Assembly: GCA_003252385.1 (NCBI GenBank)
Contig: QKEH01000139.1
Coordinates: forward strand, 22,598 to 86,597
Length of the DNA: 64,000 bases
Direction: 5' to 3'
Source of the DNA: Bacteroidota bacterium
Lineage (GTDB): Bacteria; Bacteroidota; Bacteroidia; Bacteroidales; UBA10428
Shown: positions 22,372 through 45,835 of the stretch, in pieces
Layout: each line of letters starts with the position of its first letter
Numbering within the stretch: position 1 is the stretch's first letter
Notes under the pieces: model-generated
The model's input: the letters and a program-made list of their open reading frames with translations, nothing else
Told to the model about the DNA's origin: nothing
Databases searched by the model: none
Translations under genes and position numbers: made by a program

Positions 22372-23284
22372 TTGAGGTACGTTTAGTCCATAACTTCTGC
22401 CCGGCTCTAGTGCATAGGGTAATTGTAAGAGGATTCGACTGTGCCAGCTGATACACCGTTATTTCTGTTTCCTGTAAAAAAAGAACCGGTTCGCTGAATT
22501 CAATTTCAATCTGATATGGATTTATTACTACGACTCGTTTCAAATATGGAGATTCAGTATCTTGCGTAGCATTTCCATTAATCGAGAGCTCATCGAACCA
22601 CAAGCTTTGATCATGGCTTGCCGTATAGTGTAATGCCAGAATCAGATTCCTGATCATCCCAGCCTCTTCGGGCTTTATGGCTCCCAGATAGGTCTCGTGG
22701 GAATAGGAGTCCGTGATCGTAGCTCTTAAACTGTCACTGGGTGTGTACTCCAGGGTCAGAGTGATCCATTCACCGGAAGCTACATGCTCCTGCCAATTAT
22801 AAGCCGTAGTATTAAGCTGGATTTCACGCCCCTCGGCCAGCTCCCCCAGCTGCAGGAAGTCCTCACTCCCCTGACAATTTACCCCGATGAAATACCCCTC
22901 TTCGGGAATACCAAAAGCATCAGGAACATTGCCGGATGTCAGATAAACGCACCAGCGGTTATTGGCCGAAGGCTTGGAATCGTAACGTATTTTCATCTGC
23001 CATGAAACCTTGCCTTGCTGCAGGAGCAACGGATCATGAAAACAAGCCATCCAATCGACTCCCGCAACCGAATCGTCATGACAATGATGTAACGCGTAAC
23101 GGTCTCCGGCTGCATCCACATTGCGAATACACCAGTTTCCTTCCGCTTCCGGAAACCACCCCTGTAGTTGCTGGTTCTCAAAATCGGCATATACAACCTG
23201 TGCCACAACCAGGCAGGGTGCACTAACGAAAAAAATGAGAGCCGAAATCTTTATGAATATACTAAGCAGATGGTTTTTGGGCAT
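22346..23284 (-). CDS. Secreted hypothetical protein; probably the 5' part of the LTD gene
   Basis: I chose the start at MPKNHLLSIFIKISALIFFVSAPCLVVAQ, which is a signal peptide. The ORF ends 26 nt inside the next ORF, in a different frame. Confidence 0.55.
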   Translation of the reverse strand: MPKNHLLSIFIKISALIFFVSAPCLVVAQVVYADFENQQLQGWFPEAEGNWCIRNVDAAGDRYALHHCHDDSVAGVDWMACFHDPLLLQQGKVSWQMKIRYDSKPSANNRWCVYLTSGNVPDAFGIPEEGYFIGVNCQGSEDFLQLGELAEGREIQLNTTAYNWQEHVASGEWITLTLEYTPSDSLRATITDSYSHETYLGAIKPEEAGMIRNLILALHYTASHDQSLWFDELSINGNATQDTESPYLKRVVVINPYQIEIEFSEPVLFLQETEITVYQLAQSNPLTITLCTRAGQKLWTKRTSIAGCVRKQ

Positions 23285-31343: not shown

Positions 31344-32189
31344 ATGTGTATGACGGTAACAGACCAGGATTTTCAGTTGTTTATTTTTGCCCTTAAGACT
31401 TCTTCCAAATATGACTTCAGTGAGTATTCAGAGAAATCACTAAAGAGAAGGCTCACCAAGATATTAGCTGACAACAAGCTCAACATTAAATTGCTGCTGA
31501 ATAAGATCAAAACAGATCCGGAATTTGTTGAGCAAATAGTTAAGGAGGTTACAGTAAACACCACCGAACTCTTTCGGGATCCTCAGGTATGGCATGCATT
31601 GCGCTACACCATACTGCCCAAACTAAGAAACAATTCTGTTATTAATATCTGGCACGCTGGCTGCTCTACCGGCCAGGAAGTGTATTCCATGATGATCGTT
31701 CTTAACGAAATCGGATTATTGGATAAAACCAAGATTTATGCCACCGATATCAATACCGATGTGATTGAACAGGCTCAAAAGGGAGAGTACAAATACCGTT
31801 TCAACATAGGATACCTGGATAATTTCGATAAGGTAATTAAAGAAAATCCCTATAACTACGAAGAGTATTACGATGTGCCTTATGAAAAATATTTTAGCAT
31901 TAATAAGGCTACCGATACGATTCAAATGCACGATTTCTTAAGAAACAAACCCATCTATAAAAAACACGACCTGGTCAAGGAGAACAATACCCTGTTTGTA
32001 AAATTTGACATCATTCTCTGCCGAAATGTAATCATCTACTTTAACTATAACTTACAGGGCAGGGTATTTGACCTGTACCATCGAAACCTTTATGACAATG
32101 GTTGCCTGATCCTGGGCATGCACGAAACCATTCTGGGTTCCTACTCGGTAAAATTCCAGAAAAAAGGACACGCTTATTACAAAGCCTAA
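31344..32189 (+). CDS. CheR-type protein-glutamate O-methyltransferase (motifs intact)
   Basis: Aligns by eye to Salmonella CheR: TELFRD (TxFFRE), NIWHAGCSTGQEVYSMMIVL (VWSAAASTGEEPYSIAITL), IYATDIN (FASDID), ILCRNVIIYFN (FCRNVMIYFD) and LILGMHE (LFAGHSE). Confidence 0.85.
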   Translation: MCMTVTDQDFQLFIFALKTSSKYDFSEYSEKSLKRRLTKILADNKLNIKLLLNKIKTDPEFVEQIVKEVTVNTTELFRDPQVWHALRYTILPKLRNNSVINIWHAGCSTGQEVYSMMIVLNEIGLLDKTKIYATDINTDVIEQAQKGEYKYRFNIGYLDNFDKVIKENPYNYEEYYDVPYEKYFSINKATDTIQMHDFLRNKPIYKKHDLVKENNTLFVKFDIILCRNVIIYFNYNLQGRVFDLYHRNLYDNGCLILGMHETILGSYSVKFQKKGHAYYKA

Positions 32190-32209
32190 TACTAACCGAA
32201 AAGAAAACC

Positions 32210-34390
32210 ATGAATCTCAAACAAATTCATATTAAATATAGGTTTTATCTCCAACTTGCGCTGTTTGTGCTATTCATGGCCTGTTTGGCCTTTAGTACGT
32301 ACCAGCTGTCCCAAAAGGCGAGTCGTGCACAAAAGTCAACACTGGAATTGTATAGTTTGGTTGAAGAAAGCGAAAACGCATTCATTCAGTATGTCAGTTT
32401 CCTATACAACCTCAATAGTACGGACGAGTTCTACCAAACCGGTTCCAATAGTAATACAAGAGCGTTACAAGCCTCGCTGCAAAGTTTGGAAGATACTTTG
32501 CAAGTCTTCTCTAATAAGAACCGTTTTGCCGCCAGACTGGCAAAACTCGGTTGGAACGACTCCCTGCGAAACGCCCTGGAAGCAGTCCAGGCTAATTTTC
32601 AGTTAACCAGCTTAACCCTTAAAGAACTGGGCAATAAAAACTCCGGACAAACCGGACATGCCCTGGCCTCCAGCAATCAAATTAAATTGCTCTTACGCCC
32701 CTATCCGTATCCATCCTTGCATAATGAGCTCGCCCGGTTACAATTTGCCGAGTCGGAATTTATTTTTAGTAAAGATCAACAGGCATACAACGATGCCCTG
32801 GAACACTTGGAATTGTTGCAATACGACCCAAACCTGGGAATGCTGGATTTCAGTATCCAGGATGAAATCCAACAGCACGCCGAAACCTATAAAAACTATT
32901 TATCACTAATACAAGCTTCCCTAAACAATCTGGGAAGCATCGCCAGCGGCCAGGGTTTGCTTCCTGATATGGAACACTCCTTACGTAACTTGGAAAACCA
33001 AGCCCACAACTACCAGGAGCATGCCCAAATGGAACAGGAGAAATACTCCCGGAATGCATGGTTGGCCGGAATCTTTTTGCTGCTGCTTATTGCAACAGGA
33101 TACCTCTATCAGCTCTACCGCTTTTATGCCAGTGTATACAATCCGCTGGAGTCTTTATCCGATTTCTCGGTTCAACTGGCTAAAGGTCATAAAAAAGTGA
33201 CTGCCTTGGAAACCCGAGTTCCTGCTGAATATGTCCATGTTTTTACCCATCTGAACGAGGTCTATCAATCCATTCAGAAAAAACGCGACTTTGTTGATAA
33301 TTTGCTTAAACAAAATTTCGATTCTGAACTGACTCTGCAGGGAAAACACGACCAGTTTGGTAAAACTTTATTGGCCTTGAAAGAAAGCATGCGAAAAGCC
33401 CGCAACGAAGAGTTAAAGTATGCAGAGGAAAACCAGAAACGCCAATATCAGAACGAAGGCATTGCCAAATTCTCCGAAATTATGCGCTCCCACAGCGACA
33501 GCCTGTCGGAGCTTGCTGATGAATTTATCAAAAACATTGTACGATACCTGGAGGCCATTCAGGGCGGTTTATTCTTAATCGACGAAGAAAAACCGGAAGT
33601 AATGAACCTGGCAGCAGCCTTTGCATACAACCGGAAGAAGTATCTTTCCCGAACCATTAAAATTGGAGAAACCCTGGTGGGAACCTGTGCCCAGGAAAAG
33701 AAAACAACACATCTGAACGAACTGCCCGAAAACTACATCGAAATTACCTCAGGTCTCGGCGAGACCCCCCCCAGCAATCTCCTACTGGTTCCCATCATGC
33801 ACGAAGAGCTATTGATCGGAGTGCTTGAAATGGCCTCCCTAAAAGCATTCCAAAGTATCCAAATTCAACTATGCGAAAAAATTTGCGACAGTCTGGCTTC
33901 CACGATTATTAATGCTCGCATTAGCACGAGAACTGCTGCCTTATTGGAAAAATCGCAGCAGCAGGCCGCCGAGATGGCGGAGCAGGAAGAAGAAATGCGC
34001 CAAAATATGGAAGAATTACAAGCCACCCAGGAAGAATCGCAACGCCGTGAAGAAGAACTGGAAGGCTTCCTGGAAGCTATCGATCAGTCTTTCTATGTTT
34101 TAGAATACAACACCAGCGGAACAATTATTAAAGTTAATCAGCGCTTCCTGTATTTAACCAACCTATCTATTGACAAAATCATTGGTAAAACCCATCGGGA
34201 AATATTTGGATCTAAGAGTAAAGTCGATTCGGCTTTCTTTGCCAAAATTGCAGATGGAAATATTGTCGATCTGACCGAGGTCGTCATCATAAATGATAAA
34301 AAGCTGGAGCTGAAAAATACCTTCTCCCCGGAGAAAGACCGGTCCGGAGAAACGATTAAAATATTAAATATCATGACAGTGATCATGTAG
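32210..34390 (+). CDS. Membrane sensor with MCP-like topology but no MCP signalling domain: TM, ~270-aa helical periplasmic domain, TM, HAMP-like linker, GAF, coiled coil, PAS
   Basis: I chose the ATG at 32210 (MNLKQIHIKYRFYLQLALFVLFMACLAF). The second TM segment is WLAGIFLLLLIATGYLY. The GAF core is YLEAIQGGLFLID...ITSGLGETPPSNLLLVPIMHEELLIGVLEMAS. The coiled coil is EQEEEMRQNMEELQATQEESQRREEELEG, and a PAS-like C-terminus follows (FYVLEYNTSGTIIKVNQRF). Confidence 0.75.
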   Translation: MNLKQIHIKYRFYLQLALFVLFMACLAFSTYQLSQKASRAQKSTLELYSLVEESENAFIQYVSFLYNLNSTDEFYQTGSNSNTRALQASLQSLEDTLQVFSNKNRFAARLAKLGWNDSLRNALEAVQANFQLTSLTLKELGNKNSGQTGHALASSNQIKLLLRPYPYPSLHNELARLQFAESEFIFSKDQQAYNDALEHLELLQYDPNLGMLDFSIQDEIQQHAETYKNYLSLIQASLNNLGSIASGQGLLPDMEHSLRNLENQAHNYQEHAQMEQEKYSRNAWLAGIFLLLLIATGYLYQLYRFYASVYNPLESLSDFSVQLAKGHKKVTALETRVPAEYVHVFTHLNEVYQSIQKKRDFVDNLLKQNFDSELTLQGKHDQFGKTLLALKESMRKARNEELKYAEENQKRQYQNEGIAKFSEIMRSHSDSLSELADEFIKNIVRYLEAIQGGLFLIDEEKPEVMNLAAAFAYNRKKYLSRTIKIGETLVGTCAQEKKTTHLNELPENYIEITSGLGETPPSNLLLVPIMHEELLIGVLEMASLKAFQSIQIQLCEKICDSLASTIINARISTRTAALLEKSQQQAAEMAEQEEEMRQNMEELQATQEESQRREEELEGFLEAIDQSFYVLEYNTSGTIIKVNQRFLYLTNLSIDKIIGKTHREIFGSKSKVDSAFFAKIADGNIVDLTEVVIINDKKLELKNTFSPEKDRSGETIKILNIMTVIM

Positions 34391-34406: not shown

Positions 34407-35237
34407 ATGGTTGAACTAGGAATTGTAGACATACGCGAGATTATTCGACTGGTAAACGCAAACTTCGGTTTCGATTTGTCCAATTTTGCCCTTACTTCGC
34501 TGAAGTACCGGCTGGAACACATTATTTCGAAAAACAGTTTAACCAGTCCGGAGAATTTGTTCCGCAAACTGACTTCCGAACAGGCGTTTTTCGACACCTT
34601 CCTATCGCAACTGTTTGTACCCTCATCGGAAATGTTTCGCGACCCGTCGGTGTGGCGCTGGTTGCGTGAAGAGTATTTCGCTACCTTGGCAGACAATGCC
34701 CTGATGAATTATAAAATATGGGTGCCATTCTGCATTTCAGGTGGAGAATTGTGTACCCTATGCATTGTACTTAAAGAATTACGCCTCTTAGACAAGGTTA
34801 AAATTTACGCCACCTATTTTAGCGATTCCTCCCTGGAACAAATCAAGTCAGGGGTATATCCCTTAAAAAAAGTACAGGTGTCCGCAGAAAACTACCGCCG
34901 GTTTAAAGGCGATGCCAATTTCGAAGAGTATTACACCATGGATCAATATAACGCCAAAAGAGTGCTGGATTTATTTGATTCCGTCGAATTTATAAAGGAC
35001 GACCTCTCGTTTGGCAAAGCGCCCAAAAACGTAAAACTGGTGTTAATGCGCAATTCGCTGATTTATTTTAAACCTAATTTTCAGGATGATATATTGAATG
35101 TAATCTATCAAAGTATGTCTGCGGCTGGAATTCTTCTGCTGGGTTTGCAGGAACTCATCACAAAAAACCAAAATACCAAGTCATTATTTGACCCACAGGA
35201 GATAAGCGAGAGTATTTACAAAAGAAGAATAGGGTAG
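34407..35237 (+). CDS. Divergent CheR-like protein (SAM-binding motifs altered)
   Basis: It has the CheR fold pattern (SEMFRDPSVW, KIYAT, LMRNSLIYF, LLLGLQE). Motif I reads KIWVPFCISGGE instead of xxWxAGCSTGEE, and ATDID is replaced by ATYFS. Confidence 0.75.
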   Translation: MVELGIVDIREIIRLVNANFGFDLSNFALTSLKYRLEHIISKNSLTSPENLFRKLTSEQAFFDTFLSQLFVPSSEMFRDPSVWRWLREEYFATLADNALMNYKIWVPFCISGGELCTLCIVLKELRLLDKVKIYATYFSDSSLEQIKSGVYPLKKVQVSAENYRRFKGDANFEEYYTMDQYNAKRVLDLFDSVEFIKDDLSFGKAPKNVKLVLMRNSLIYFKPNFQDDILNVIYQSMSAAGILLLGLQELITKNQNTKSLFDPQEISESIYKRRIG

Positions 35238-35240
35238 CAT

Positions 35241-35798
35241 ATGAACTATAAGGCCGTAATAATAGGAGGATCAGCAGGTAGCTTTCAAATTGTTACCCGA
35301 ATACTCAATTCCCTGAACCCGAATTTTCCCCTGCCGGTTTTACTCTGCCTACACCGTTTGAAACATGTACGCTCCGGTTTTGTGGAAGCCCTTTCGTTGA
35401 AATCAAATATCCCCATATCAGAGCCCTACGACAAAGACCAGTTAAAACCCGGAAACGCATACCTGGCACCTGCCAATTACCATATGTTTGTGGAACTGGC
35501 CAACCGCATAGCTCTTTCCACCGATGAGCCAGTCAATCATTCCCGTCCATCTATCGACCTGTCCTTTGTTACCGCCGCCAATGCCTACCGCGATAAGTTA
35601 ATCGGCATCATTCTTTCGGGAGCCAATCGCGATGGAGCTTTTGGACTTAAAAAAGTGGTAGATAACGGAGGCTTAAGCATTGTTCAGGATCCACAGGAAA
35701 GCGAAGTAAAAACCATGCCAACATCCGCCTTGCAACTAACCAAAGTTGACTACGTATATACCACCGATCAAATTATCCGATTCCTGCAAAAACTCTAG
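35241..35798 (+). CDS. CheB-type protein-glutamate methylesterase, catalytic domain only (no receiver)
   Basis: 185 aa. Candidate triad residues are Ser in VIIGGSAGS (GASTGG in CheB), His in LLCLHRL (TQHMP) and Asp in LSGANRDGA (LTGMGNDGA). It also has the HSRPSIDLSF core motif. Confidence 0.85.
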   Translation: MNYKAVIIGGSAGSFQIVTRILNSLNPNFPLPVLLCLHRLKHVRSGFVEALSLKSNIPISEPYDKDQLKPGNAYLAPANYHMFVELANRIALSTDEPVNHSRPSIDLSFVTAANAYRDKLIGIILSGANRDGAFGLKKVVDNGGLSIVQDPQESEVKTMPTSALQLTKVDYVYTTDQIIRFLQKL

Positions 35799-35799
35799 T

Positions 35800-36576
35800 A
35801 TGCCCCCAATAAACCAACATAAAATTCAAACTTTACTGCCCTTCCTGGGCGTATTGCTCTGCATCCTGTTGCTGGTTATCAGCTTCTGGAACCATAGCCT
35901 CAAGTGTGAACTTGGAGTGAGCGCCTGGGCGTTAGTATTTTTAGTTTTAAGTATAGCCTCTCTCGCTTATGTTTACCTTCAGGTGGTAAAAGCCACCGAT
36001 CCAAAACATACCGAATCCCTAATTCAAACCGAAGTCGAAAAAGAACGCACCAAGATCCTGGCCAGTTTCGAAACCCACGAAGAACAGCAGGCAGATGACC
36101 TCCTGACTCTCCAAAAACAGGCAGATGAAATTCTTCCAAAAGGCACATTCAATCAAACCGACAAATTTCTGGATAAATTACTTTCCAATCTGTCGAAACA
36201 CCTTCAACTCTCCATGGGACTAGCCTATACGTTGTCTGAGCAAGGCGATGAATATTTTTTTTCAACAGCCTATGCGCTCACCCACGACGAACCTCTTCAA
36301 AGTTTCAAACCCGGTGACAATTTGAACGGTGAAGTAGCCCGAACACTGGAAACATTAATCCTTAACGATATTCCCGAAGATTATTTCCCCATAGAATCGG
36401 GCTTGGGTAAATCGCAACCAAAAACCCTGATTATTGCCCCTATTGTTCATGATAGTACATGTATTGCTATTCTTGAAATTGCTACCTTTAGTACGGTAGA
36501 CCATCAAGCCAAATTGATTATTGATGAAGTTTGCCAGAAGGCAGCCGGTAGACTTTTACAAATACAAAAGTCATAA
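35800..36576 (+). CDS. Two-TM protein with cytoplasmic GAF domain (short paralog of the sensor GAFs)
   Basis: The ATG at 35800 follows the cheB-like stop codon by one nucleotide. It has two hydrophobic segments, then a GAF core (YFPIESGLGKSQPKTLIIAPIVHDSTCIAILEIAT) paralogous to those in 32210-34390 and 36587-39211. Confidence 0.65.
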   Translation: MPPINQHKIQTLLPFLGVLLCILLLVISFWNHSLKCELGVSAWALVFLVLSIASLAYVYLQVVKATDPKHTESLIQTEVEKERTKILASFETHEEQQADDLLTLQKQADEILPKGTFNQTDKFLDKLLSNLSKHLQLSMGLAYTLSEQGDEYFFSTAYALTHDEPLQSFKPGDNLNGEVARTLETLILNDIPEDYFPIESGLGKSQPKTLIIAPIVHDSTCIAILEIATFSTVDHQAKLIIDEVCQKAAGRLLQIQKS

Positions 36577-36586
36577 GAAACAAGCT

Positions 36587-39211
36587 ATGACGAAACTATT
36601 ACAGCTATATAACAAATATTTTGGCAAGGATACGAACCAATTGCCTTTTGCGATTGTACTGGGATGCTTTTTGCCTATCATAGCATGGGTTATTGAAATA
36701 ATCTATCACAAAGCACCTGTTAGCCCTGCAGGACTGCTCCAATTACACAAAGAAAATGGGGCCCTTTTCGTGATCGACCTAATCCCTCTGCTATTAATTG
36801 GGTTAACTGCAATTACCCGTTTCAACCAGAAAACAGTAACCGAAGAATTCAATACAAAGTTGAATTCCCAGGAAAGACACTTGCAAAGCCTGGCCGAATT
36901 TGCCAAACAAATAGGCGAAGGCAATTACAATACCCAGCTCAATGTCGAAGAAAATAACGACTCGCTATCGCAGGCACTACTGGTTATGCGCGAGAACCTG
37001 GTTGCCAACCATAAAAAAGACACCGAACAGAACTGGATAGCCGAAGGGAAGGAAATAGTTTCTGACATCATGCGAACCAACAGCAGGGTTGAAGATCTAA
37101 CAATTCAAGTAATACGCGCGCTGGTGAAATACGTCAATTTGGTACAAGGCGCACTGTACCTTTATAACGAAGAGAAAGAAATACTTGAAAATGTTGCTAC
37201 CTATGCCTATAACCGCCAGAAATATATCAACCAAACCTTCAAAATTGGCCATGGACTAATTGGAGCCTGTGCCTACGAGAAAGAGTACATCTATCGTACC
37301 GAAATTCCCGACACTTATGCTACCATCACCTCCGGAATACTGGGCGATCAGAAACCCCAAAGCATTTTACTGGTACCTCTTATAACCGATGAAAAACTGC
37401 AAGGTGTAATTGAATTTGCCACCCTCCAAAAAGAAATCCCGGAACTTACCATACGTTTGTTGGTTGAATTGGCCGAGATTATTGCCCGCACCGTATTCAA
37501 TCTAAAAATAAACCAGCGTACGGAGATGCTCCTCCGCGAATCGCAGAAGATGACGGCTGAACTCAAGGAGAACGAAGAGCAGCTGCAACAAAACGCCGAG
37601 GAAATGCGAGCCACCCAGGAGGAACTCCAAAAATCCAACGAGCAACTCGAAACCAATATTCAAAAAGTGGAGAATGCTCAGAAACGACTTTATTCCCTGC
37701 TCGAAAATGCCTCGGAGATCATCGCCATCTACAATGAAAATATGCAGCTTACCTACGAGAGTCCGTCGGTAATTAAAATTCTGGGCTACACCCCGGAAGA
37801 GATGATGGGTGGCAAGGATATGGATCGTTTGACCCGAAAAGGGGAAACCGCTATGCGCCAAATGTTTAAGCAAATACTGGCGAACCCATCCGAAGCCGTA
37901 TCGATTCAGTATACCTACATGAAGAAGAACGGTCAGAAGATATTCCTTGAAACCACCGGACGAAATCTTCTGGATGATCCGGCCATCAATGGAATTATTT
38001 TGAATTCGAGCGATATTACCGAACGAAAACGCGCCGAGAAAGAGGAACGGATGCGAAGCAAGATGCAGGCACTTTCGGAGAACTCATTGGACATGATTCT
38101 TCGACTTAGCACCGTTGGTCAGTTCTTTTATGCCAACCCCATGGTAAAAAACTATACCGGCATCGATAATCAAAACCTCATCAATAAAACTCTTAACGAA
38201 GTTAACTTTGATGAAATCCTGTTCAATTATTTCCGCGACACCATAGCCGAAATAAAGGAATCCCCTGAAAAAACGACCAAAGAAATTACCATTACCGTTC
38301 CCACAGAGGATGGTGGCACGGAAGAAAGCATTATGAGTTTCAATGCCATCCCTGAATTTAATGAGAACGAGCTGGAAACTATCCTTTTTGTAGGACACGA
38401 TATAACTGAAGCCAAACGTATTGAACTGGAGATTCAGGATAAAAATCGAAAAATTGAAGATTCCATCAACTACGCGCGCCGAATTCAAACCTCTATACTC
38501 CCGGATAACCGGGTACTCCGCGAAGCATTACCCAAATCGTTCATATTTTATCGCCCTCGTGATGTGGTTAGTGGCGATTTCCCCTGGTACTTCCGAAAAG
38601 GCGATGATATTTTTATTGCTGCTGTAGACTGTACAGGGCATGGTGTTCCAGGAGCATTGCTCTCATTCATCGGGTACTTTTTGCTGAATAACATAGCCGA
38701 CCATCCCGTTGAACACACGGCATCCAGTTTGTTGAATAACCTCCATGCCTCGGTTCGAAAAACCCTGAAACAGGACGAAACCAATGCCGAAGCCCGTGAT
38801 GGAATGGACATTGCACTTTGTAAAATCAACTTTAAAAAAATGGAACTGCAATATGCAGGTGCCCACCGACCCCTTTACTTTTTGCGCGAAGGAGAACTTA
38901 CCGAATACAGAGGCGATCGCAAAGCCATTGGCGGCATTCCTCATAAAAACAAACTGGAAAAAGACTTTACGAATTATAGCATCGATCTTCAAAAAGGAGA
39001 CCGGGTATTCTTCTTCTCCGATGGACTCCCCGACCAACTGGGAGGGGATGAAGCAAAAAAATACTCCCCGAAACGAATTCGCGACAATATTGTTGAGAAC
39101 AAACACTTGACTATGGAGGAATATAATACTTTCTTTGCGAATGACTTTCTGGGTTGGATGACGAATCACAAACCGATTGACGATGTCCTCTTAATAGGCA
39201 TCGAGTTTTAA
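36587..39211 (+). CDS. Membrane sensor phosphatase (SiaA/RsbU-like): 2 TM, HAMP-like linker, GAF, coiled coil, 2 PAS, PP2C/SpoIIE
   Basis: I chose the ATG at 36587. The GAF core is YVNLVQGALYLYN...ITSGILGDQKPQSILLVPLITDEKLQGVIEFAT and the coiled coil is ENEEQLQQNAEEMRATQEELQKSNEQLE. The PAS boundaries are DITERKRAE and DITEAKRIE. PP2C motifs are ARRIQTSILP, VSGDFPWY, AAVDCTGHGVPGALLS, FFFSDGLPDQ and DDVLLIGIEF. Confidence 0.8.
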   Translation: MTKLLQLYNKYFGKDTNQLPFAIVLGCFLPIIAWVIEIIYHKAPVSPAGLLQLHKENGALFVIDLIPLLLIGLTAITRFNQKTVTEEFNTKLNSQERHLQSLAEFAKQIGEGNYNTQLNVEENNDSLSQALLVMRENLVANHKKDTEQNWIAEGKEIVSDIMRTNSRVEDLTIQVIRALVKYVNLVQGALYLYNEEKEILENVATYAYNRQKYINQTFKIGHGLIGACAYEKEYIYRTEIPDTYATITSGILGDQKPQSILLVPLITDEKLQGVIEFATLQKEIPELTIRLLVELAEIIARTVFNLKINQRTEMLLRESQKMTAELKENEEQLQQNAEEMRATQEELQKSNEQLETNIQKVENAQKRLYSLLENASEIIAIYNENMQLTYESPSVIKILGYTPEEMMGGKDMDRLTRKGETAMRQMFKQILANPSEAVSIQYTYMKKNGQKIFLETTGRNLLDDPAINGIILNSSDITERKRAEKEERMRSKMQALSENSLDMILRLSTVGQFFYANPMVKNYTGIDNQNLINKTLNEVNFDEILFNYFRDTIAEIKESPEKTTKEITITVPTEDGGTEESIMSFNAIPEFNENELETILFVGHDITEAKRIELEIQDKNRKIEDSINYARRIQTSILPDNRVLREALPKSFIFYRPRDVVSGDFPWYFRKGDDIFIAAVDCTGHGVPGALLSFIGYFLLNNIADHPVEHTASSLLNNLHASVRKTLKQDETNAEARDGMDIALCKINFKKMELQYAGAHRPLYFLREGELTEYRGDRKAIGGIPHKNKLEKDFTNYSIDLQKGDRVFFFSDGLPDQLGGDEAKKYSPKRIRDNIVENKHLTMEEYNTFFANDFLGWMTNHKPIDDVLLIGIEF

Positions 39212-39232: not shown

Positions 39233-39814
39233 ATGGACAATAAAAAAGATGTAAAAGGCTTTCTGGAATTTGTCTACGAGTTCTACAAATCCATGAAAGC
39301 TCACGAAATCACCCTGGTGTATGAAGGAGAAATCACACACCAGATTACCAAAGCATTCACCTCGCTAACCGAGTCGAACATGGCCAAAGATGATGAGCCA
39401 GGAAATGTTCAACGGAAGGTTTTCCACGTAATGGTAGAATGCCTACAGAACATTAGCAAACATGCCGATGATTTTTCGTCGAGTGACTTCCTCTTCTCCG
39501 GGCGAGGCATTTTTCTGGTTAGCAAAGGCGATAATGAATACAGCGTAACCACCGGAAACGCTGTGGACAACGATAAAATCGAAGAGTTAACCAACATGCT
39601 CGAAACCATCAATAAAATGGATAAAGACGAGCTTAAAGATCTTTATAAAAAACAAATGAAAGAAGGACGCCTGTCGGAAAAAGGCGGAGCCGGACTTGGC
39701 TTTATCGATATTAAGCGCAAAACAGGCCGAGATCTTGAATATCACTTTTTGCCCATTTCGAACGATACTTCTTTCTTTTTATTAACTTCGACTATCTCAA
39801 GAGACGACAATTAA
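39233..39814 (+). CDS. SiaB/RsbW-like HATPase-fold Ser/Thr protein kinase
   Basis: 193 aa with an N-box-like VMVECLQNISKHA and a G-box-like EKGGAGLGFIDIKRKTG. The size and position, between a PP2C gene and a DUF1987 gene, match the SiaB arrangement. Confidence 0.65.
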   Translation: MDNKKDVKGFLEFVYEFYKSMKAHEITLVYEGEITHQITKAFTSLTESNMAKDDEPGNVQRKVFHVMVECLQNISKHADDFSSSDFLFSGRGIFLVSKGDNEYSVTTGNAVDNDKIEELTNMLETINKMDKDELKDLYKKQMKEGRLSEKGGAGLGFIDIKRKTGRDLEYHFLPISNDTSFFLLTSTISRDDN

Positions 39815-39827
39815 ATACAGTGTAGCT

Positions 39828-40208
39828 ATGGAAACTATCAAAATTCAAGGTACAGAAGATACCCCCAAAGTAACCCTAGATAAGGAGCATGAAATTATGG
39901 AGATATCGGGTCGGTCGTTACCGGAAGACGTAGCTTCATTCTATGATCCGGTTCTTGCCTGGTTGGACGAATATGCTCAGGATCCCAACCCAAAAACAGT
40001 ATTTAACTTCAAACTCATGTATTTCAACACTGCTTCGTCCAAGTTGATTCTGGATATCTTAATGAAGCTGGAAGAAATCCACGAAGCAGGACATGACGTA
40101 ACCATTCGTTGGCACTTCCCCGAGGACGATGAGGACATGGAAGAAGCAGGCGAAGAATACGCCGATATTGTAGATGTACCTTTTGATCAGGTACCCTATT
40201 CAGGTTAA
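39828..40208 (+). CDS. DUF1987 / SiaC-like partner-switch protein
   Basis: 126 aa: IKIQGTEDTPKVTLD...ISGRSLPEDVASFYDPVLAWLDEY...FNFKLMYFNTASSKLILDILMKLEE...IRWHF. This pattern is characteristic of DUF1987. The conserved Thr is at codon 68 (40029-40031). Confidence 0.75.
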   Translation: METIKIQGTEDTPKVTLDKEHEIMEISGRSLPEDVASFYDPVLAWLDEYAQDPNPKTVFNFKLMYFNTASSKLILDILMKLEEIHEAGHDVTIRWHFPEDDEDMEEAGEEYADIVDVPFDQVPYSG

Positions 40209-40251: not shown

Positions 40252-43200
40252 ATGAGTGAGGAAATTCTAAAAGCGCTTATGCAACTCTTTGCCATTGTGG
40301 CAAAGCAGGACGAAGGCGTTGAAGCAACCCAGGTAGATTATGTAAAGAACTTTCTGGAACAGCAGCTTACTGCTGAGAAGGTAGCGGAATACTATATGCT
40401 TTTCGAAAAGCATGCCGGGTTGCGGGATGAAGACGAATCGAAAATAAAAAATAAACTCACTTCAGTTCGCGATTCCGTGCGTATTCTGGGTTTGTGTAAA
40501 AAGATCAATAAGACACTTACCCAGAAGCAAAAAGTGGTTGCGTTACTGCGCCTCTTCGAAATTATCAACGCCGATCGCAAGTTTACCGACCAACGGATGG
40601 CAATCCTTAATACGGTTGCTGAGGTGTTCAATATTTCACAGGAAGAGTTTAAGAGTATCGAACTTTTTGTTGTTCAAACCCAACCGGAACACCTCGACAA
40701 CGAGAGTATACTTATCATCAACGATAAGAAGACACGGTTTGAACACGCCAAGAAGATCAAAACCAAAGAGCTTGATGCAGATATCTATATCCTTCGGATT
40801 GTAAGCGTTGATCTGTACTTCCTAAAATATACCGGTAATGAGGATTTGTATCTAAACGGACTACCCATCAACAATACCCGTATTTATCTTTTCGCGAATG
40901 GCAGCACTGTAAAACTCCCCAAAGGAGCACCTGTTTATTATAGTGATATTGCCGCACATTTTCTGGCGGACATCTCCGCCAGCAAGATATCCTTTACTGT
41001 TCGCGATTTGAGTTATCAATTCTCCAACGGAAATCTGGGTCTTCGAGACATTTCCTTCTCCGAAGGACATGGACGTTTGATCGGAATTATGGGAGCCAGT
41101 GGTGCTGGAAAAACCACCCTGTTGAATGTTCTGTCGGGCATTGAAGCTCCTACTCAGGGGGAAGTGCTGATCAACGGACTCAACCTGCACAAAGAAAAAG
41201 AAAAGTTGGAAGGAGTTATTGGGCTTATTCCCCAGGATGATTTGCTGATTGAAGAACTCACCGTTTTTGAGAATCTGTTTTACAATGCCAAGCTTTGCTT
41301 TAAGGATAAAAACGACAAGGAGATCACCCAACTGGTGAACAAAACCCTAACCAGCCTGGGACTTTTCGATCGCAAAGATTTAAAAGTTGGATCACCTCTT
41401 AAGAAAACCATCAGTGGAGGGCAACGCAAACGCCTGAACATTGCTCTTGAACTGATTCGGGAGCCCTCCATATTGTTTGTCGATGAACCGACTTCAGGAC
41501 TTTCTTCCCGCGACTCCGAAAATGTTATGGATCTTCTGCGGGAGCTTACCTTAAAAGGCAAGTTGATATTTGTGGTCATTCACCAACCTTCGTCCGACAT
41601 TTACAAAATGTTCGACAAAATGGTGATACTCGACACGGGCGGATATCTGATATACTATGGCAACCCGGTAGAAGGGGTCATGTATTTTAAACGCATGGAT
41701 GCCCAGATTAACAGCGATGTTGGCGAATGTGCAACCTGTGGTAATGTGAATCCGGAACTGATCTTCAACATTATTGAAGCCCATGTGGTGGATGAATTCG
41801 GCAACTATACCGATACGCGAAAAGTTTCGCCCACCAAATGGGAAGAGAACTACCAACAAAATTTCTTCCCCGAAGAAGTGGAAAGGGTTTCGGATCCACC
41901 CCCGAAATCTTTAAATATTCCCGGATGGTTCAAACAATTGAAAATTTATGGTATCCGGGATTTTTTGGCTAAGATCAGCAATCATCAATATGTCGCATTG
42001 AATCTGCTCGAAGCACCGGTACTTGGCTTCATACTCTCTTACCTGATCCGTTACATCGAAGACCCGAATTCAAAAATATACATCTTCAGGGTAAATGAGA
42101 ATATGCAGATATTTATCTTCATGTCTCTAATCGTAGCCCTTTTCCTTGGGTTAATGGTGAGCGCCGAGGAAATAGTCAAGGACAGGAAGATATTGAAGCG
42201 GGAAAAATTCCTCAATCTGAGTAAATCCAGCTACCTGCTTTCCAAAATATTAATACTCTTTATCATTAGCGCCATCCAGGCATTCCTGTTTGTGATTATT
42301 GCCAACAGCATTCTTGGGATAAAAGGAATGGGGTTCATCTACTGGTTTGCCCTGTTTTCTACAGCAGCTTTCGCCAATATGCTAGGGTTGAATATTTCCT
42401 CCACTTTCGATTCAGCCGTTACCATCTATATCCTTATACCGCTCCTCATGATACCCATGATGGTACTTAGCGGAGCCATGTTTAGTTTTGATAAATTGAA
42501 TCAACGTATCGGCCGGGTGGATAAAGTTCCGTTCATAGCCGAATTTATGGTCACCAAATGGGGCTACGAAGCTCTTATGGTACACCAGTTTAAGGATAAT
42601 AAATTTACTCATACTTTCTATGATTTAGAGCGACAGGAAAGTATTGCGGATTTCAAAAAGGTATACTACCTGCCGGAACTTCGCGACCGTCTCACCCGAA
42701 TTGATAAAGAACTTCGAGATATCAATCAGATTGATATCACCAAGGAAGATTTAACCTTACTAGTCAATGAGATTCGCAAGGAGAACAAACTGATCCGACT
42801 TATTGAGGATGATTTTATTAAGCAGGGCCATACCGAAGCAATTGACCTGATCAAACCGGTATACTTCGAGGATGTAGATGCTCTTACGAAAAATTTCACC
42901 TCACGGGATTCCCGGAGCGTTTACGAGTATTTAAAATCGCTGGATAGTTTCTATACCAATTTGTTTGCACTGGCCAGTAAGAAGCGTCAAAATATGATCA
43001 ACTACTTCCTGGAGAACCAACCGGAACGTTATCAGGAACGCTTTGACAGTTACTATAATGAAGCGATCTCCGATATACTTAAGAAAGTATATGAAAAACA
43101 GAAAATTCTGGAATACAGAAACCAACTGGTACAGCATATTGATCCGATATATGAGTATCCTATACCTTCGAATCCATTGAGCTTCCGAAGCCATTTCCTG

Positions 43201-43353
43201 GCCCCTTGCAAGCACTTTCTAGGCAAGTACTTCGATACCTACTGGTTCAATATGACCGTTATCTGGATTCTTACAGCGATATGCTATGGTTTATTGTATT
43301 TTGACGTGTTTAAAAAGCTGCTGACCATCAGCGAAAGTCTAAAAAGAAAATAA
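40252..43353 (+). CDS. ABCG-type half transporter (NBD then ABC-2 TMD) with ~260-aa N-terminal regulatory extension
   Basis: Walker A GASGAGKTT, signature ISGGQRKRLNIALEL and Walker B ILFVDEPTSGLS, with 5-6 C-terminal TM segments. The N-terminus is TerB-like and helical (LMQLFAIVAKQDEGVEATQVDYV...), followed by a beta-rich segment (DADIYILRIVSVDLYFLKYTGNEDLYLNGLPINNTRIYLFANGSTVKL). Confidence 0.85.
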   Translation: MSEEILKALMQLFAIVAKQDEGVEATQVDYVKNFLEQQLTAEKVAEYYMLFEKHAGLRDEDESKIKNKLTSVRDSVRILGLCKKINKTLTQKQKVVALLRLFEIINADRKFTDQRMAILNTVAEVFNISQEEFKSIELFVVQTQPEHLDNESILIINDKKTRFEHAKKIKTKELDADIYILRIVSVDLYFLKYTGNEDLYLNGLPINNTRIYLFANGSTVKLPKGAPVYYSDIAAHFLADISASKISFTVRDLSYQFSNGNLGLRDISFSEGHGRLIGIMGASGAGKTTLLNVLSGIEAPTQGEVLINGLNLHKEKEKLEGVIGLIPQDDLLIEELTVFENLFYNAKLCFKDKNDKEITQLVNKTLTSLGLFDRKDLKVGSPLKKTISGGQRKRLNIALELIREPSILFVDEPTSGLSSRDSENVMDLLRELTLKGKLIFVVIHQPSSDIYKMFDKMVILDTGGYLIYYGNPVEGVMYFKRMDAQINSDVGECATCGNVNPELIFNIIEAHVVDEFGNYTDTRKVSPTKWEENYQQNFFPEEVERVSDPPPKSLNIPGWFKQLKIYGIRDFLAKISNHQYVALNLLEAPVLGFILSYLIRYIEDPNSKIYIFRVNENMQIFIFMSLIVALFLGLMVSAEEIVKDRKILKREKFLNLSKSSYLLSKILILFIISAIQAFLFVIIANSILGIKGMGFIYWFALFSTAAFANMLGLNISSTFDSAVTIYILIPLLMIPMMVLSGAMFSFDKLNQRIGRVDKVPFIAEFMVTKWGYEALMVHQFKDNKFTHTFYDLERQESIADFKKVYYLPELRDRLTRIDKELRDINQIDITKEDLTLLVNEIRKENKLIRLIEDDFIKQGHTEAIDLIKPVYFEDVDALTKNFTSRDSRSVYEYLKSLDSFYTNLFALASKKRQNMINYFLENQPERYQERFDSYYNEAISDILKKVYEKQKILEYRNQLVQHIDPIYEYPIPSNPLSFRSHFLAPCKHFLGKYFDTYWFNMTVIWILTAICYGLLYFDVFKKLLTISESLKRK

Positions 43354-43435
43354 TGGTTTTTACTGAAACAGATTTTTAATATCTTTATAGATATTGTTAC
43401 ATTTGTTTAACGCAGAACAACTAACATTACGAGCT

Positions 43436-44341
43436 ATGCTTAGAAAATTTTATGCGCTTTTTGTTGTGAGTATACTGATCTTCGGATGCAAATCGGGAGG
43501 AGAACAAAACACAGGCGATGACTTCAAAGTGCCTGAGGCAGTAGTCAATGAAGGAGTTCTTGAAATCTCCGAAGAAGTTATGCAGGATATTGTGCAGAAT
43601 ATTGCCTCCCCGGTTGAAATGGCCGCTTTGGTAAAAAGTCTGGATGCCGGTTTTTCCAGTAAATATCTCGCTCCCACTGAAAACGTGGACGATCTGACAA
43701 CAAGTTATCAACAAGCGTTTCATTTGGGCATTTATGCTGCCGATTTGGGTTATCTGAACATTTACAATAAGAACAACTCCGTCATTGAATACATTACCGC
43801 CATAAAAACGCTTGCCGATGGCATACGCGTGGGTCAGTTCTTTGATTTCTCCACGTTAAAGCGGCTTACTCAAAATTCGCAAAACTTGGACTCCTTAATG
43901 TACACCTCGGTGCATAGCTTCAATCAAATGGACAAATACCTAAGAAGCGACAATCGAAGCAATTTGAGTACTGCCATGGTCGCCGGAATCTGGATCGAAG
44001 GTCTTTATTTGGCAACGCAAGTTGCGAAAGCTTCCCCACATCCCCAGCTTTCAGAACGTATTGGTGAGCAGAAGATTATTATGAGCGATTTAATGCTTAT
44101 CCTGGGCAATTACAAAAGCGATAAGAACTTTGCCAAGCTATTTGATGCATTTAACCAATTAAAAGCAGAGTTTAATAATGTTACTATTACCATCGAAAAA
44201 GGGGAGCCAGAAATGATTGAAGAAGACGGGATGCTCGTTATTGTTCAAAACGATGTAAGCATTGTTAACATCACCCCGGAACAGCTGACAAGCATTATCA
44301 AAAAGACCGAAGAAATCCGTAACATGCTAATCAGTATTTAA
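43436..44341 (+). CDS. Hypothetical lipoprotein (operon member)
   Basis: ATG at 43436 with lipobox MLRKFYALFVVSILIFGC. The rest is predicted mostly helical and I recognised no domain. Confidence 0.5.
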   Translation: MLRKFYALFVVSILIFGCKSGGEQNTGDDFKVPEAVVNEGVLEISEEVMQDIVQNIASPVEMAALVKSLDAGFSSKYLAPTENVDDLTTSYQQAFHLGIYAADLGYLNIYNKNNSVIEYITAIKTLADGIRVGQFFDFSTLKRLTQNSQNLDSLMYTSVHSFNQMDKYLRSDNRSNLSTAMVAGIWIEGLYLATQVAKASPHPQLSERIGEQKIIMSDLMLILGNYKSDKNFAKLFDAFNQLKAEFNNVTITIEKGEPEMIEEDGMLVIVQNDVSIVNITPEQLTSIIKKTEEIRNMLISI

Positions 44342-44342
44342 G

Positions 44343-44783
44343 ATGAAAAAATTCCTGAAGCTCATTTACCTCTCAATATTTCTTATCTCTACTGAAGCTT
44401 TTGCACAGGATAATGTTGAGTTAGTGGCACAATGTGCCGCCAGTGCCGGCGATGTTACCTATTTAAAGGATTTTGTCGTTAAATTGGATGCCGGGGTTCC
44501 TGGAGGAAACCCACCTTCGGCAAAATTCTCCATGGTATTAAGCAAAAGCACGCAATATCGCTTTTCGATTTGCACAGCTCCTGACTCCGATGGAGAGGCC
44601 ATTCTACAACTTTTTGACATGAATGTTTTACAGGGTAGTACCTACATTAGCGCAACCGGTAAAGAATTTCCCTTCTTCGATTTTAAATGCCAAAAAACTG
44701 GTGTTTATCATGTTTTTATTTCCTTTAAAGAAGGGAAACCAGGAGAGGCAGTTGGAATCCTATCGTTTGTAAAGAAACTGTAA
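44343..44783 (+). CDS. Small secreted hypothetical protein (last operon gene)
   Basis: Starts 1 nt after the previous stop codon. It has a signal peptide (MKKFLKLIYLSIFLISTEAFAQ), four Cys residues and no recognised domain. Confidence 0.45.
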   Translation: MKKFLKLIYLSIFLISTEAFAQDNVELVAQCAASAGDVTYLKDFVVKLDAGVPGGNPPSAKFSMVLSKSTQYRFSICTAPDSDGEAILQLFDMNVLQGSTYISATGKEFPFFDFKCQKTGVYHVFISFKEGKPGEAVGILSFVKKL

Positions 44784-44845: not shown

Positions 44846-45835
44846 CTAAACCAGGAAATTTAAAGCTAAGGGCGCTATAATAAGAAACAATAATAATAAG
44901 CGGGTGAAGATGGAGACCTTACATTCGGTGAAATATACTGCCAAGAGAACGGAGATGGGAACTGCCATGAGGTAAAATACCTCCGAACCAACTGAGGGGA
45001 TTAACAACCCACAAAACAGGATATTAAGGAACAATAAGAAAAGTATCTGTAAGAGCTTGCGCACCTGTATTTTCGAGGTCGAAAACTTTCGTATGGCATA
45101 TAAGCTGGCCACAACTGCTGACAACATATAAAGTAACACACTGCTAATTAGCTGCCAAGAGGTAAAATAACTCTTACCAAGTACAACCCAGGACTTCAAA
45201 CTATCCCATGACGATGAAATAGAAATACCCAGGATATAGGCTGCTGTTAGAAGATAAATGGCAGGAATGATTAAACCAATAACGCTAAATAGCAACTCGC
45301 GCCAGTTCGATGGACGCAATATCCACTGCGAAAGCCATAAAAATGGGAATAGAAAAACAAGGTTAAAATAAAACATACTCCCAACAGCCAGCAACATACC
45401 TGCATCCAGGAAACGATAGGAAGTTCCTCGTTCATCAATGGCACCAACCACCCTTTCCAATACTAAAATTAGGAAGACTGCTGCCAGCAAGGCTCCAGAA
45501 TACAATTCGCTATGCAATGCAAAAACAGAAATAGCCAGGTAAAAAAGTGCAGTAAATTGAGATCGGCTCGAAACCAATTGATGACGAATTACAATGCGGG
45601 TTATTCCAAATGCCCCTAACAGCAATACCGCCATTAGAAACACCAGCACCAGTGCCTTGGCATTCTGATTGGATGTAAACTCGTGATACTCTCCCTGAAT
45701 AAATGGCGCTCCGAAAATAGAGGTTTGTATAAAATGTTTTCCCGGCGAAAAGTACGTAGTCAATACGGCGCTAACACCATAAAAGAATATGAGTAGAATA
45801 AAAAACTGATGATTTCGGCGTAAAGTACGTATCAT
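44846..45835 (-). CDS. Polytopic membrane protein, unknown function
   Basis: 329 aa, almost entirely hydrophobic segments (about 9 TM). I recognised no motif. Confidence 0.5.
   Translation of the reverse strand: MIRTLRRNHQFFILLIFFYGVSAVLTTYFSPGKHFIQTSIFGAPFIQGEYHEFTSNQNAKALVLVFLMAVLLLGAFGITRIVIRHQLVSSRSQFTALFYLAISVFALHSELYSGALLAAVFLILVLERVVGAIDERGTSYRFLDAGMLLAVGSMFYFNLVFLFPFLWLSQWILRPSNWRELLFSVIGLIIPAIYLLTAAYILGISISSSWDSLKSWVVLGKSYFTSWQLISSVLLYMLSAVVASLYAIRKFSTSKIQVRKLLQILFLLFLNILFCGLLIPSVGSEVFYLMAVPISVLLAVYFTECKVSIFTRLLLLFLIIAPLALNFLV

Follow-up and report, generated by a model that had tools for sequence, protein, structure and literature searches.

The DNA considered here is a 64,000-nucleotide stretch of contig QKEH01000139.1 from a Bacteroidota bacterium (positions 22,598 to 86,597; the whole stretch is called the window below), and within it lies an operon in which the genes of a SiaB/SiaC-type phosphorylation switch stand directly ahead of the gene for an ABC exporter with a long N-terminal head. 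The operon runs in order through a GAF/PAS protein, CheR, CheB, a GAF protein, a GAF-PAS-PAS-PP2C protein, a SiaB-family protein, a SiaC-family protein, the transporter and two proteins of 315 and 146 amino acids. The transporter open reading frame (40252-43353, + strand) begins with an ATG at 40252 and encodes 1033 amino acids, in which Pfam recognizes TerB at residues 8-136, ABC_tran at 264-415 (111 bits) and ABC2_membrane at 562-780 (83 bits). The nucleotide-binding domain (NBD) is thus followed by an ABC-2 membrane domain on one chain, as in ABCG and ABC-2 exporters, and an alignment with human ABCG1 spans residues 245-754; the TIGR00955 model scores 263 bits, under its own cut-off. Judged by this layout the product is an ABCG-type half-transporter. 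Its Walker A motif, GASGAGKT, occupies residues 281-288 (nucleotide ~41092), and the ~260-residue extension N-terminal to the NBD corresponds to 40252-41040, a region whose translation contains both peptides quoted in the first-pass annotation.

AlphaFold2 models residues 1-263 of the transporter as an ordered structure of two domains (alignment of 56 homologues at 45-80% identity; predicted local distance difference test score, pLDDT, 87.1; predicted template modelling score, pTM, 0.80), with helices at 3-148, strands at 153-221 and a further helix at 230-238, and only an acidic loop at 60-67 is disordered. The first-pass annotation had proposed an extension of about this length, composed of a TerB-like helical module and a degenerate FHA-like beta segment, and both its extent and its two-part anatomy are borne out by the start codon, the position of the Walker A motif, the Pfam TerB match, the AlphaFold2 model and the Foldseek matches to that model.

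The first domain is a TerB-family helical bundle (residues 1-142; 40252-40677, + strand). Pfam TerB PF05099 scores 36.9 bits over residues 8-136 against a gathering threshold of 24.4 (32.5 bits in the full-length protein), and a Foldseek search of the PDB agrees with the predicted helices, matching the extension model to PG1108 (2h5n) over 131 columns with a target-normalized TM-score (TMt) of 0.58-0.61 and a probability of 0.95-1.0. The N-terminus of the bundle, MSEEIL..A..LF, is very strongly conserved, as is a polar helix motif, C82-K-K-I-N86-x-x-L89-x-x-x-Q93-K94, and L6, A8, L12, F13, Y47, N86, L89, Q93, K94 and F126 are nearly invariant among 44 full-length relatives of 38-52% overall identity. 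The acidic KQDxG motif of TerB is not retained in distant members. A single-sequence search of PDB sequences also returned a weak, repeated likeness of residues 44-91 (window 40381-40524; 'ESKLKNxxxSVRxFVRxLG') to the linker repeats of phycobilisome ApcE; E sums to 1e-4 over the repeats, none of which is significant by itself, and the match was judged spurious, probably a chance helical motif.

The second domain, encoded at 40678-40986 (+ strand), is a beta-sandwich of minimal FHA fold (residues ~150-228) with a helix (230-243) after it, recognized by AlphaFold2, by Foldseek and by a profile search. Modelled alone, residues 143-245 reach a pLDDT of 89, and all 50 of the PDB structures among the Foldseek matches listed are FHA domains, with query-normalized TM-scores (TMq) of 0.36-0.57, probabilities mostly of 0.9-1.0 and a best E of 0.007, so that no PDB match attains E <= 0.001. 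Searched with the 1-263 model, the matches listed are again mostly FHA domains (MEK1, CEP170, Rad53 FHA1, KIF1A and the N-terminal FHA of EssC), together with PG1108. A trimmed profile of the beta segment built from 25 sequences and run against all PDB sequences has a single match, the MEK1 FHA domain (E 0.017), the wider profile having been swamped by matches to nucleotide-binding domains. In that alignment 'SVDLYFlkytg..vLNGl' is paired with 'IPMFYVKDCSLNGTYLNGL', and the MEK1 motif 'DCSLNGT' falls on the variable 'ytgkeel'. The fold is accordingly recognizable in the predicted structure while its sequence profile is not: Pfam FHA PF00498 matches none of 25 members, even at E <= 10, and the sandwich is truncated to about 6-8 strands, short of the canonical 11.

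The residues with which FHA domains bind phosphothreonine are Gly-Arg in the beta3-4 loop, Ser-x-x-His in the beta4-5 loop and Asn in the beta6-7 loop, and at the corresponding positions (157-158, 174-177 and 196) none of these is conserved in 186 members of the family. What is invariant or nearly so in the same 186 members is structural (F190, L201, N202, G203, Y212, G217 and Y-Y-S-D 229-232), and among the 44 full-length relatives N202 of the 'LNG' motif is invariant and G217 nearly so. The first-pass annotation had remarked that the Gly-Arg and Ser-x-x-His residues were not evident, and the conservation at each position and the uniformly negative Pfam FHA result confirm this. From the model and the conservation pattern, residues ~150-228 appear to be a degenerate FHA fold that is unable to read phosphothreonine in the usual way. 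A linker (40987-41040, + strand), marked by a drop in pLDDT to 64 around residues 241-250 and by the start of ABC_tran at residue 264, joins the extension to the first NBD strand.

The gene that immediately precedes the transporter encodes a SiaC-family phosphoprotein of 126 amino acids (39828-40208, + strand; Pfam SiaC PF09345, 145.9 bits) and ends 43 nucleotides before the transporter start codon. Its residues Y65, F66, N67, T68, A69, S70 and S71 are invariant among 26 orthologues, and it also carries an invariant acidic segment, 'EDDEDMxEAGEEY'. In Pseudomonas aeruginosa T68 is the SiaC phosphosite (PMC8457831), and the earlier identification of this DUF1987 protein as a switch protein of the threonine-phosphorylated type is upheld by its family and by the retention of Y65, N67 and T68. 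Upstream of it lies a SiaB-family protein kinase (DUF6272; 39233-39814, + strand), which scores 175.5 bits against a cut-off of 85 for NCBIfam SiaB_fam_kinase NF038262 and 145.6 bits for Pfam DUF6272. Neither protein reaches its NCBIfam equivalog cut-off (SiaC NF038265, 89.9 bits against 150; SiaB NF038264, 81.4 bits against 225), and the two are therefore family members rather than orthologues. SiaA's place is taken by a GAF-PAS-PAS-PP2C phosphatase of the SpoIIE type (36521-39211, + strand; Pfam SpoIIE, PAS and GAF), which is syntenic in Bacteroidales loci. The kinase, the SiaC protein with its Thr68 site and the PP2C phosphatase are encoded in one operon, which is the composition of a SiaABC-type switch. 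A scan for promoters and terminators between siaC and the transporter found nothing, and such a scan is not informative for Bacteroidota promoters.

The association of SiaC with the transporter was followed through homologous loci, numbered with the prefix L, and it appears in three arrangements. In the first, the order CheR-CheB-GAF-PP2C-SiaB-SiaC-ABC is found in the Bacteroidales loci, in Fulvivirga maritima (L081, 49% identity) and in L165-L168 (45-52%); the whole operon is syntenic in essentially all 80 Bacteroidales loci with enough upstream flank (head identity 62-81%; L011 and L078 have almost none). In the second, seen in L171 (3266-10024; 33% identity), an RR-PAS-PP2C protein (RR, response regulator) and an RR-HisKA-HATPase protein stand in for the phosphatase and SiaB of the window, and SiaC ends 3 nucleotides before the transporter; in this case a histidine-kinase-type ATPase may phosphorylate SiaC. 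In the third, found in L072 and L080, a divergent SiaB-SiaC pair lies on the opposite strand directly upstream of the transporter and is transcribed away from it (L080:4507-5465, - strand). The divergent pair shows 34% and 48% identity to that of the window, and nearby neither PP2C, CheR nor CheB was found, nor any other candidate effector adjoining SiaC. A directly upstream SiaC gene is thus present in six divergent lineages (L081, L165-L168 and L171) at 33-52% identity.

It could be argued that this proximity reflects co-transcription only and that SiaC finds its target elsewhere in the cell. The link is one of gene order, and in L084 a SiaC gene lies about 10 kb away from the transporter in an unrelated context, so that SiaC genes are not confined to the place beside it. 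Against this, SiaC remains next to the transporter at identities as low as 33%, where the phosphatase and kinase have been exchanged and where the SiaB-SiaC pair is inverted; the inverted arrangement leaves no alternative effector gene beside SiaC; and the target in the Pseudomonas paradigm is encoded by the downstream gene (PMC8457831). Mere co-transcription is for these loci an improbable explanation. Since the adjacency persists through all three arrangements, the transporter is, on this genomic evidence, very probably the output of the SiaB/SiaC switch.

How such a switch might reach the transporter is a separate matter. By analogy with Rv1747 of Mycobacterium tuberculosis, a precedent raised in the first-pass annotation, the FHA-like domain could recognize phosphorylated T68, so that phosphorylated SiaC would dock on the extension. 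The fold is indeed that of an FHA domain, a threonine-phosphorylated protein is encoded next door, and Rv1747 provides the example of an ABC exporter with FHA domains whose regulation depends on Ser/Thr phosphorylation (PMC3138270). Yet the positions of the Arg, the Ser, the His and the loop Asn are unconserved in the 186 members, Pfam FHA is silent in all 25 members searched, and the sandwich is truncated. Moreover, in the one Sia system studied it is unphosphorylated SiaC that binds the target, and phosphorylation of T68 abolishes the binding (PMC8457831). Because the binding residues are missing and T68 phosphorylation blocks SiaC binding in that system, docking through phosphorylated T68 is very unlikely.

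The head itself extends far beyond the loci with a Sia switch. Run in full against 1.84 billion cluster representatives, a HMMER search finds the module in 698 clusters at 50% identity with E <= 0.001, and in 427 of them with E <= 1e-10, a degree of conservation well beyond what chance would give. Full-length members are ~1000-1040 amino acids long, with the module at residues 1-~265 and identity down to 28%. All 120 database entries among the matches listed are much shorter than ~1000 amino acids, and in each of the nine loci looked up (L081-L085 and L165-L168) the transporter is split into at least two called genes. Automated annotation often records this transporter as 'TerB family protein, partial' or as a short ABC protein. 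Taken from these searches, the head is an unannotated, very widespread and family-defining part of the transporter.

The loci that lack Sia neighbours weigh against the idea of SiaC docking on the head. A sister clade of 83 loci (L082-L164) is made up of L082-L085 and of 79 loci from metagenomes, and for many of them the sequence upstream of the transporter covers 1.5-10 kb. Its members have the head in full, ~51% identical to that of the window, and share with the window both the transporter core and the pair of genes that follows it; in the flanks of these loci (up to 10 kb) SiaB, SiaC, PP2C, CheR and CheB were not found. Two distant relatives, L169 (28%) and L170 (37%), likewise keep the head, and SiaB, SiaC and PP2C were not found in their flanks. 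Conservation of the TerB part is at least as strong in the Sia-free clade, where 72% of its positions are >=90% conserved as against 61% in the Sia-linked clade, and conserved differences between the clades are spread evenly over all domains (2-5% of positions). Not one position of the head combines conservation throughout the Sia-linked lineages with a change in all three Sia-free lineages, and the most conserved features of the head (the MSEEIL N-terminus, N86/Q93/K94, N202 and G217) are common to all lineages. Finally, although the TerB part correlates with SiaC in the distance-matrix comparison given below, CheB (+0.53) and the 146-amino-acid protein (+0.38) do so more strongly. Of the four Sia-free loci with annotation, three (L083-L085) have a gene for an LPG_synthase_TM (lysyl-phosphatidylglycerol-synthase-type) membrane protein immediately upstream of the transporter.

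The first-pass annotation had cast the extension as the receiver of the switch signal, and had named as evidence against this any homologous transporters that carry it without PP2C, kinase or DUF1987 neighbours. Such transporters exist at the level of gene neighbourhood in the 83 sister-clade loci and the two distant relatives, and the claim of a dedicated receiver does not survive them. Given that the head is equally conserved in the Sia-free clade and that no position tracks the presence of Sia genes, it is better described as a family-defining module than as a dedicated receiver of SiaC, and as far as these comparisons reach it has a role for which neighbouring Sia genes are dispensable, unless the Sia-free genomes encode the switch elsewhere.

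These observations lend weight to the possibility that the head has a job independent of SiaC, such as auto-inhibition or dimerization of the NBD, sensing of a ligand or metal by the TerB bundle, or contact with some other partner, and that SiaC acts instead on the NBD, on the linker between the NBD and the transmembrane domain (TMD), or on the C-terminal extension. Its equal conservation in a large lineage without Sia neighbours, its retention in the two further Sia-free relatives, the lack of a Sia-correlated residue signature and the sharing of its most conserved features by all lineages would all be expected if this were so. The loss of KQDxG in distant members speaks against a universal ligand site, however, and the C-terminal extension, as the other cytoplasmic accessory region, is poorly conserved within the Sia-linked clade. 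A partial correlation of distance matrices with that of SiaC, computed over 54 sequences (53 loci and the window) with the common signal removed, gives +0.27 for TerB and +0.19 for the FHA-like domain against -0.20 to -0.26 for the NBD, the TMD and the C-terminal extension, a noisy measure with no valid significance test. This weak signal points, by a small margin over the other parts of the transporter, to the head as the partner of SiaC. A SiaC-independent head is a serious alternative, though less likely than not.

Beyond the head, the ABCG-type core (41041-42621, + strand) comprises the NBD (264-480), a CxxC linker (C493 and C496) and the ABC-2 membrane domain (562-780), as delimited by Pfam and the ABCG1 alignment. 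The CxxC motif, GECATCGNVNPE (residues 491-502; window 41722-41757), lies between the NBD and the membrane domain, and C493, C496, G497 and E502 of this segment are nearly invariant across the 44 relatives; the motif may bind a metal or serve in redox chemistry. The core is followed by a C-terminal extension of ~240 residues (791-1033; 42622-43353, + strand) with a final membrane helix and without a usable Pfam match even in a lenient scan. Apart from the last ~100 residues this extension varies, with only 15% of positions conserved in the Sia-linked clade, and its invariant residues among the 44 full-length relatives are N936, K987, T996, N1000 and W1005.

At the head of the conserved operon are genes for a CheR methyltransferase (34407-35237) and a CheB methylesterase (35241-35798), both on the + strand (34407-35798), matched by Pfam CheR and CheB_methylest and syntenic elsewhere; CheA, CheW and CheY are absent from the operon that holds them. 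Heptad stretches rich in Gln and Glu, EEMRQNMEELQATQEE and QQNAEEMRATQEELQKSNEQLE, occur in the 762-amino-acid GAF/PAS protein that precedes them (32102-34390) and in the PP2C phosphatase, and these are candidate methylation sites through which a phosphatase-based pathway might adapt.

On the other side of the transporter are two secreted or lipoprotein-like proteins (43394-44783, + strand), one of 315 amino acids (43394-44341) with the motif 'ILIFGC' and one of 146 amino acids (44343-44783) with a signal peptide, identified as partners by synteny. Neither has a Pfam or NCBIfam match, nor anything usable in a lenient Pfam scan. Their genes are conserved 3' of the transporter in L001-L168 and L171, in Sia-linked loci and in the large Sia-free clade alike. 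A convergent gene for a DUF6427 membrane protein (44846-45835, - strand) follows, and it is also found downstream in annotated Sia-free loci. The 315-amino-acid, 146-amino-acid and DUF6427 proteins are probably part of the export machinery.

A working mechanism can be proposed from these elements. Residues 1-~245 would form a fixed cytoplasmic head, with the TerB bundle packed on the minimal FHA sandwich, and this head would serve as a phospho-independent module for regulation or interaction that precedes the NBD and modulates ATPase activity and export. The GAF/PAS-PP2C phosphatase, with adaptation by CheR and CheB, and the SiaB kinase would together set the phosphorylation state of SiaC T68, and SiaC would then bind the transporter, both in the window and in most lineages. 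By analogy with SiaC and SiaD the binder would be the unphosphorylated form and its site a helical surface. The basic or polar C82-K94 helix of the TerB bundle, which could complement the acidic 'EDDEDMxEAGEEY' segment of SiaC, would be, we infer, the best candidate contact.

The steps of this proposal are not equally secure. The anatomy of the head is solid and the genetic coupling striking; the first-pass interpretation as a whole is only partly supported, and the docking of SiaC on the head is conjectural and in part weakened by the Sia-free clades. Binding of SiaC to the transporter at some site is probable; that it binds the head, all considered, is a conjecture with somewhat less than an even chance. 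If docking does occur on the head, the unphosphorylated form of SiaC is the most likely to be engaged, and the direction of its effect on the transporter is likewise conjectural. The favoured reading as a whole, a phospho-blind head on a transporter that is the SiaC-bound output of the switch, is given a probability of roughly 0.45. More tentative is the complete chain, in which a SiaB/SiaC switch fed by GAF/PAS sensors and CheR/CheB would gate an ABCG-type exporter through unphosphorylated SiaC seated on a TerB and phospho-blind FHA head.

The coupling would matter beyond this locus. To our knowledge the widespread SiaC/DUF1987 proteins have one known target only, a diguanylate cyclase, and within the literature searched no paper connects DUF1987/SiaC with an ABC transporter. 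Here the conserved gene downstream of SiaC encodes an ABC exporter in three arrangements and in numerous lineages of Bacteroidota, and this gene coupling suggests an undescribed transporter output for the Sia switch. If the mechanism holds, it adds a new class of output to the family (transport instead of cyclic di-GMP synthesis) and a new, post-translational form of control to ABC transporters. The SiaC family has been proposed, by those who described the SiaC-SiaD structure, to be a general 'adjacent-protein' switch (PMC8457831), and control of the transporter by SiaC would make it one. The head is in addition an instructive example of the re-use of an FHA fold that no longer reads phosphothreonine.

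Each domain of the head has known counterparts. Like the TerB-family domains exemplified by PG1108 (2h5n, which we take to be a TerB-family member), the bundle has a Pfam score above cut-off and a fold match to 2h5n, and two 'hydrophobic-A-x-x-D-G ... E' half-repeats are visible in it (KQDEG... and NADRKF...). It differs in sharing its chain with an FHA-like domain and an ABC transporter, in dropping the acidic motif in distant members and in having the family-specific C-K-K-I-N...Q-K helix. The N-terminal FHA of EssC, from type VII secretion, and the FHA domain of kinesin-3, non-canonical FHA domains that serve for interaction independently of phosphorylation, are among the fold matches listed (5fwh, 1wv3, 4egx and 4ejq), and the EssC domains likewise lack the phosphothreonine-binding residues. 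These domains have no detectable sequence relationship to the one described here, which sits at the head of a transporter and not on a secretion ATPase or a motor protein.

At the level of the system, two precedents stand out. Rv1747 has two canonical phosphothreonine-binding FHA domains, a phosphorylated linker and a Hanks-type kinase, PknF (PMC3138270, PMC8339232). Like the present transporter it is an ABC exporter whose NBD precedes its TMD; both carry an N-terminal module of FHA fold, and both have genes for Ser/Thr phospho-signalling close by. Here, by contrast, a single truncated FHA fold occupies the same position before the NBD without the binding residues or the Pfam match, is preceded by TerB and is served by a SiaB/SiaC switch, and the transporter is thus not of the Rv1747 type. 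In the SiaABCD system of Pseudomonas aeruginosa (PP2C SiaA, kinase SiaB, phosphoprotein SiaC and cyclase SiaD), SiaC in its unphosphorylated form attaches to the helical stalk of the downstream-encoded diguanylate cyclase and activates it, and phosphorylation blocks this binding (PMC8457831). Both systems contain a PP2C phosphatase, a SiaB-family kinase and a SiaC with Y65, N67 and T68, and in both the effector gene lies directly downstream of siaC. The effector in the window is an ABCG-type exporter with a TerB/FHA-like head in place of a GGDEF cyclase with a coiled-coil stalk, and the phosphatase has GAF/PAS sensors and is preceded by CheR and CheB; with the equivalog cut-offs missed and an ABC transporter, not a GGDEF protein, encoded downstream, the operon is not an orthologue of SiaABCD. 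As its genes are arranged, the system described here appears to be like Rv1747 in architecture without the canonical FHA domains, and like SiaABCD with a transporter replacing the cyclase.

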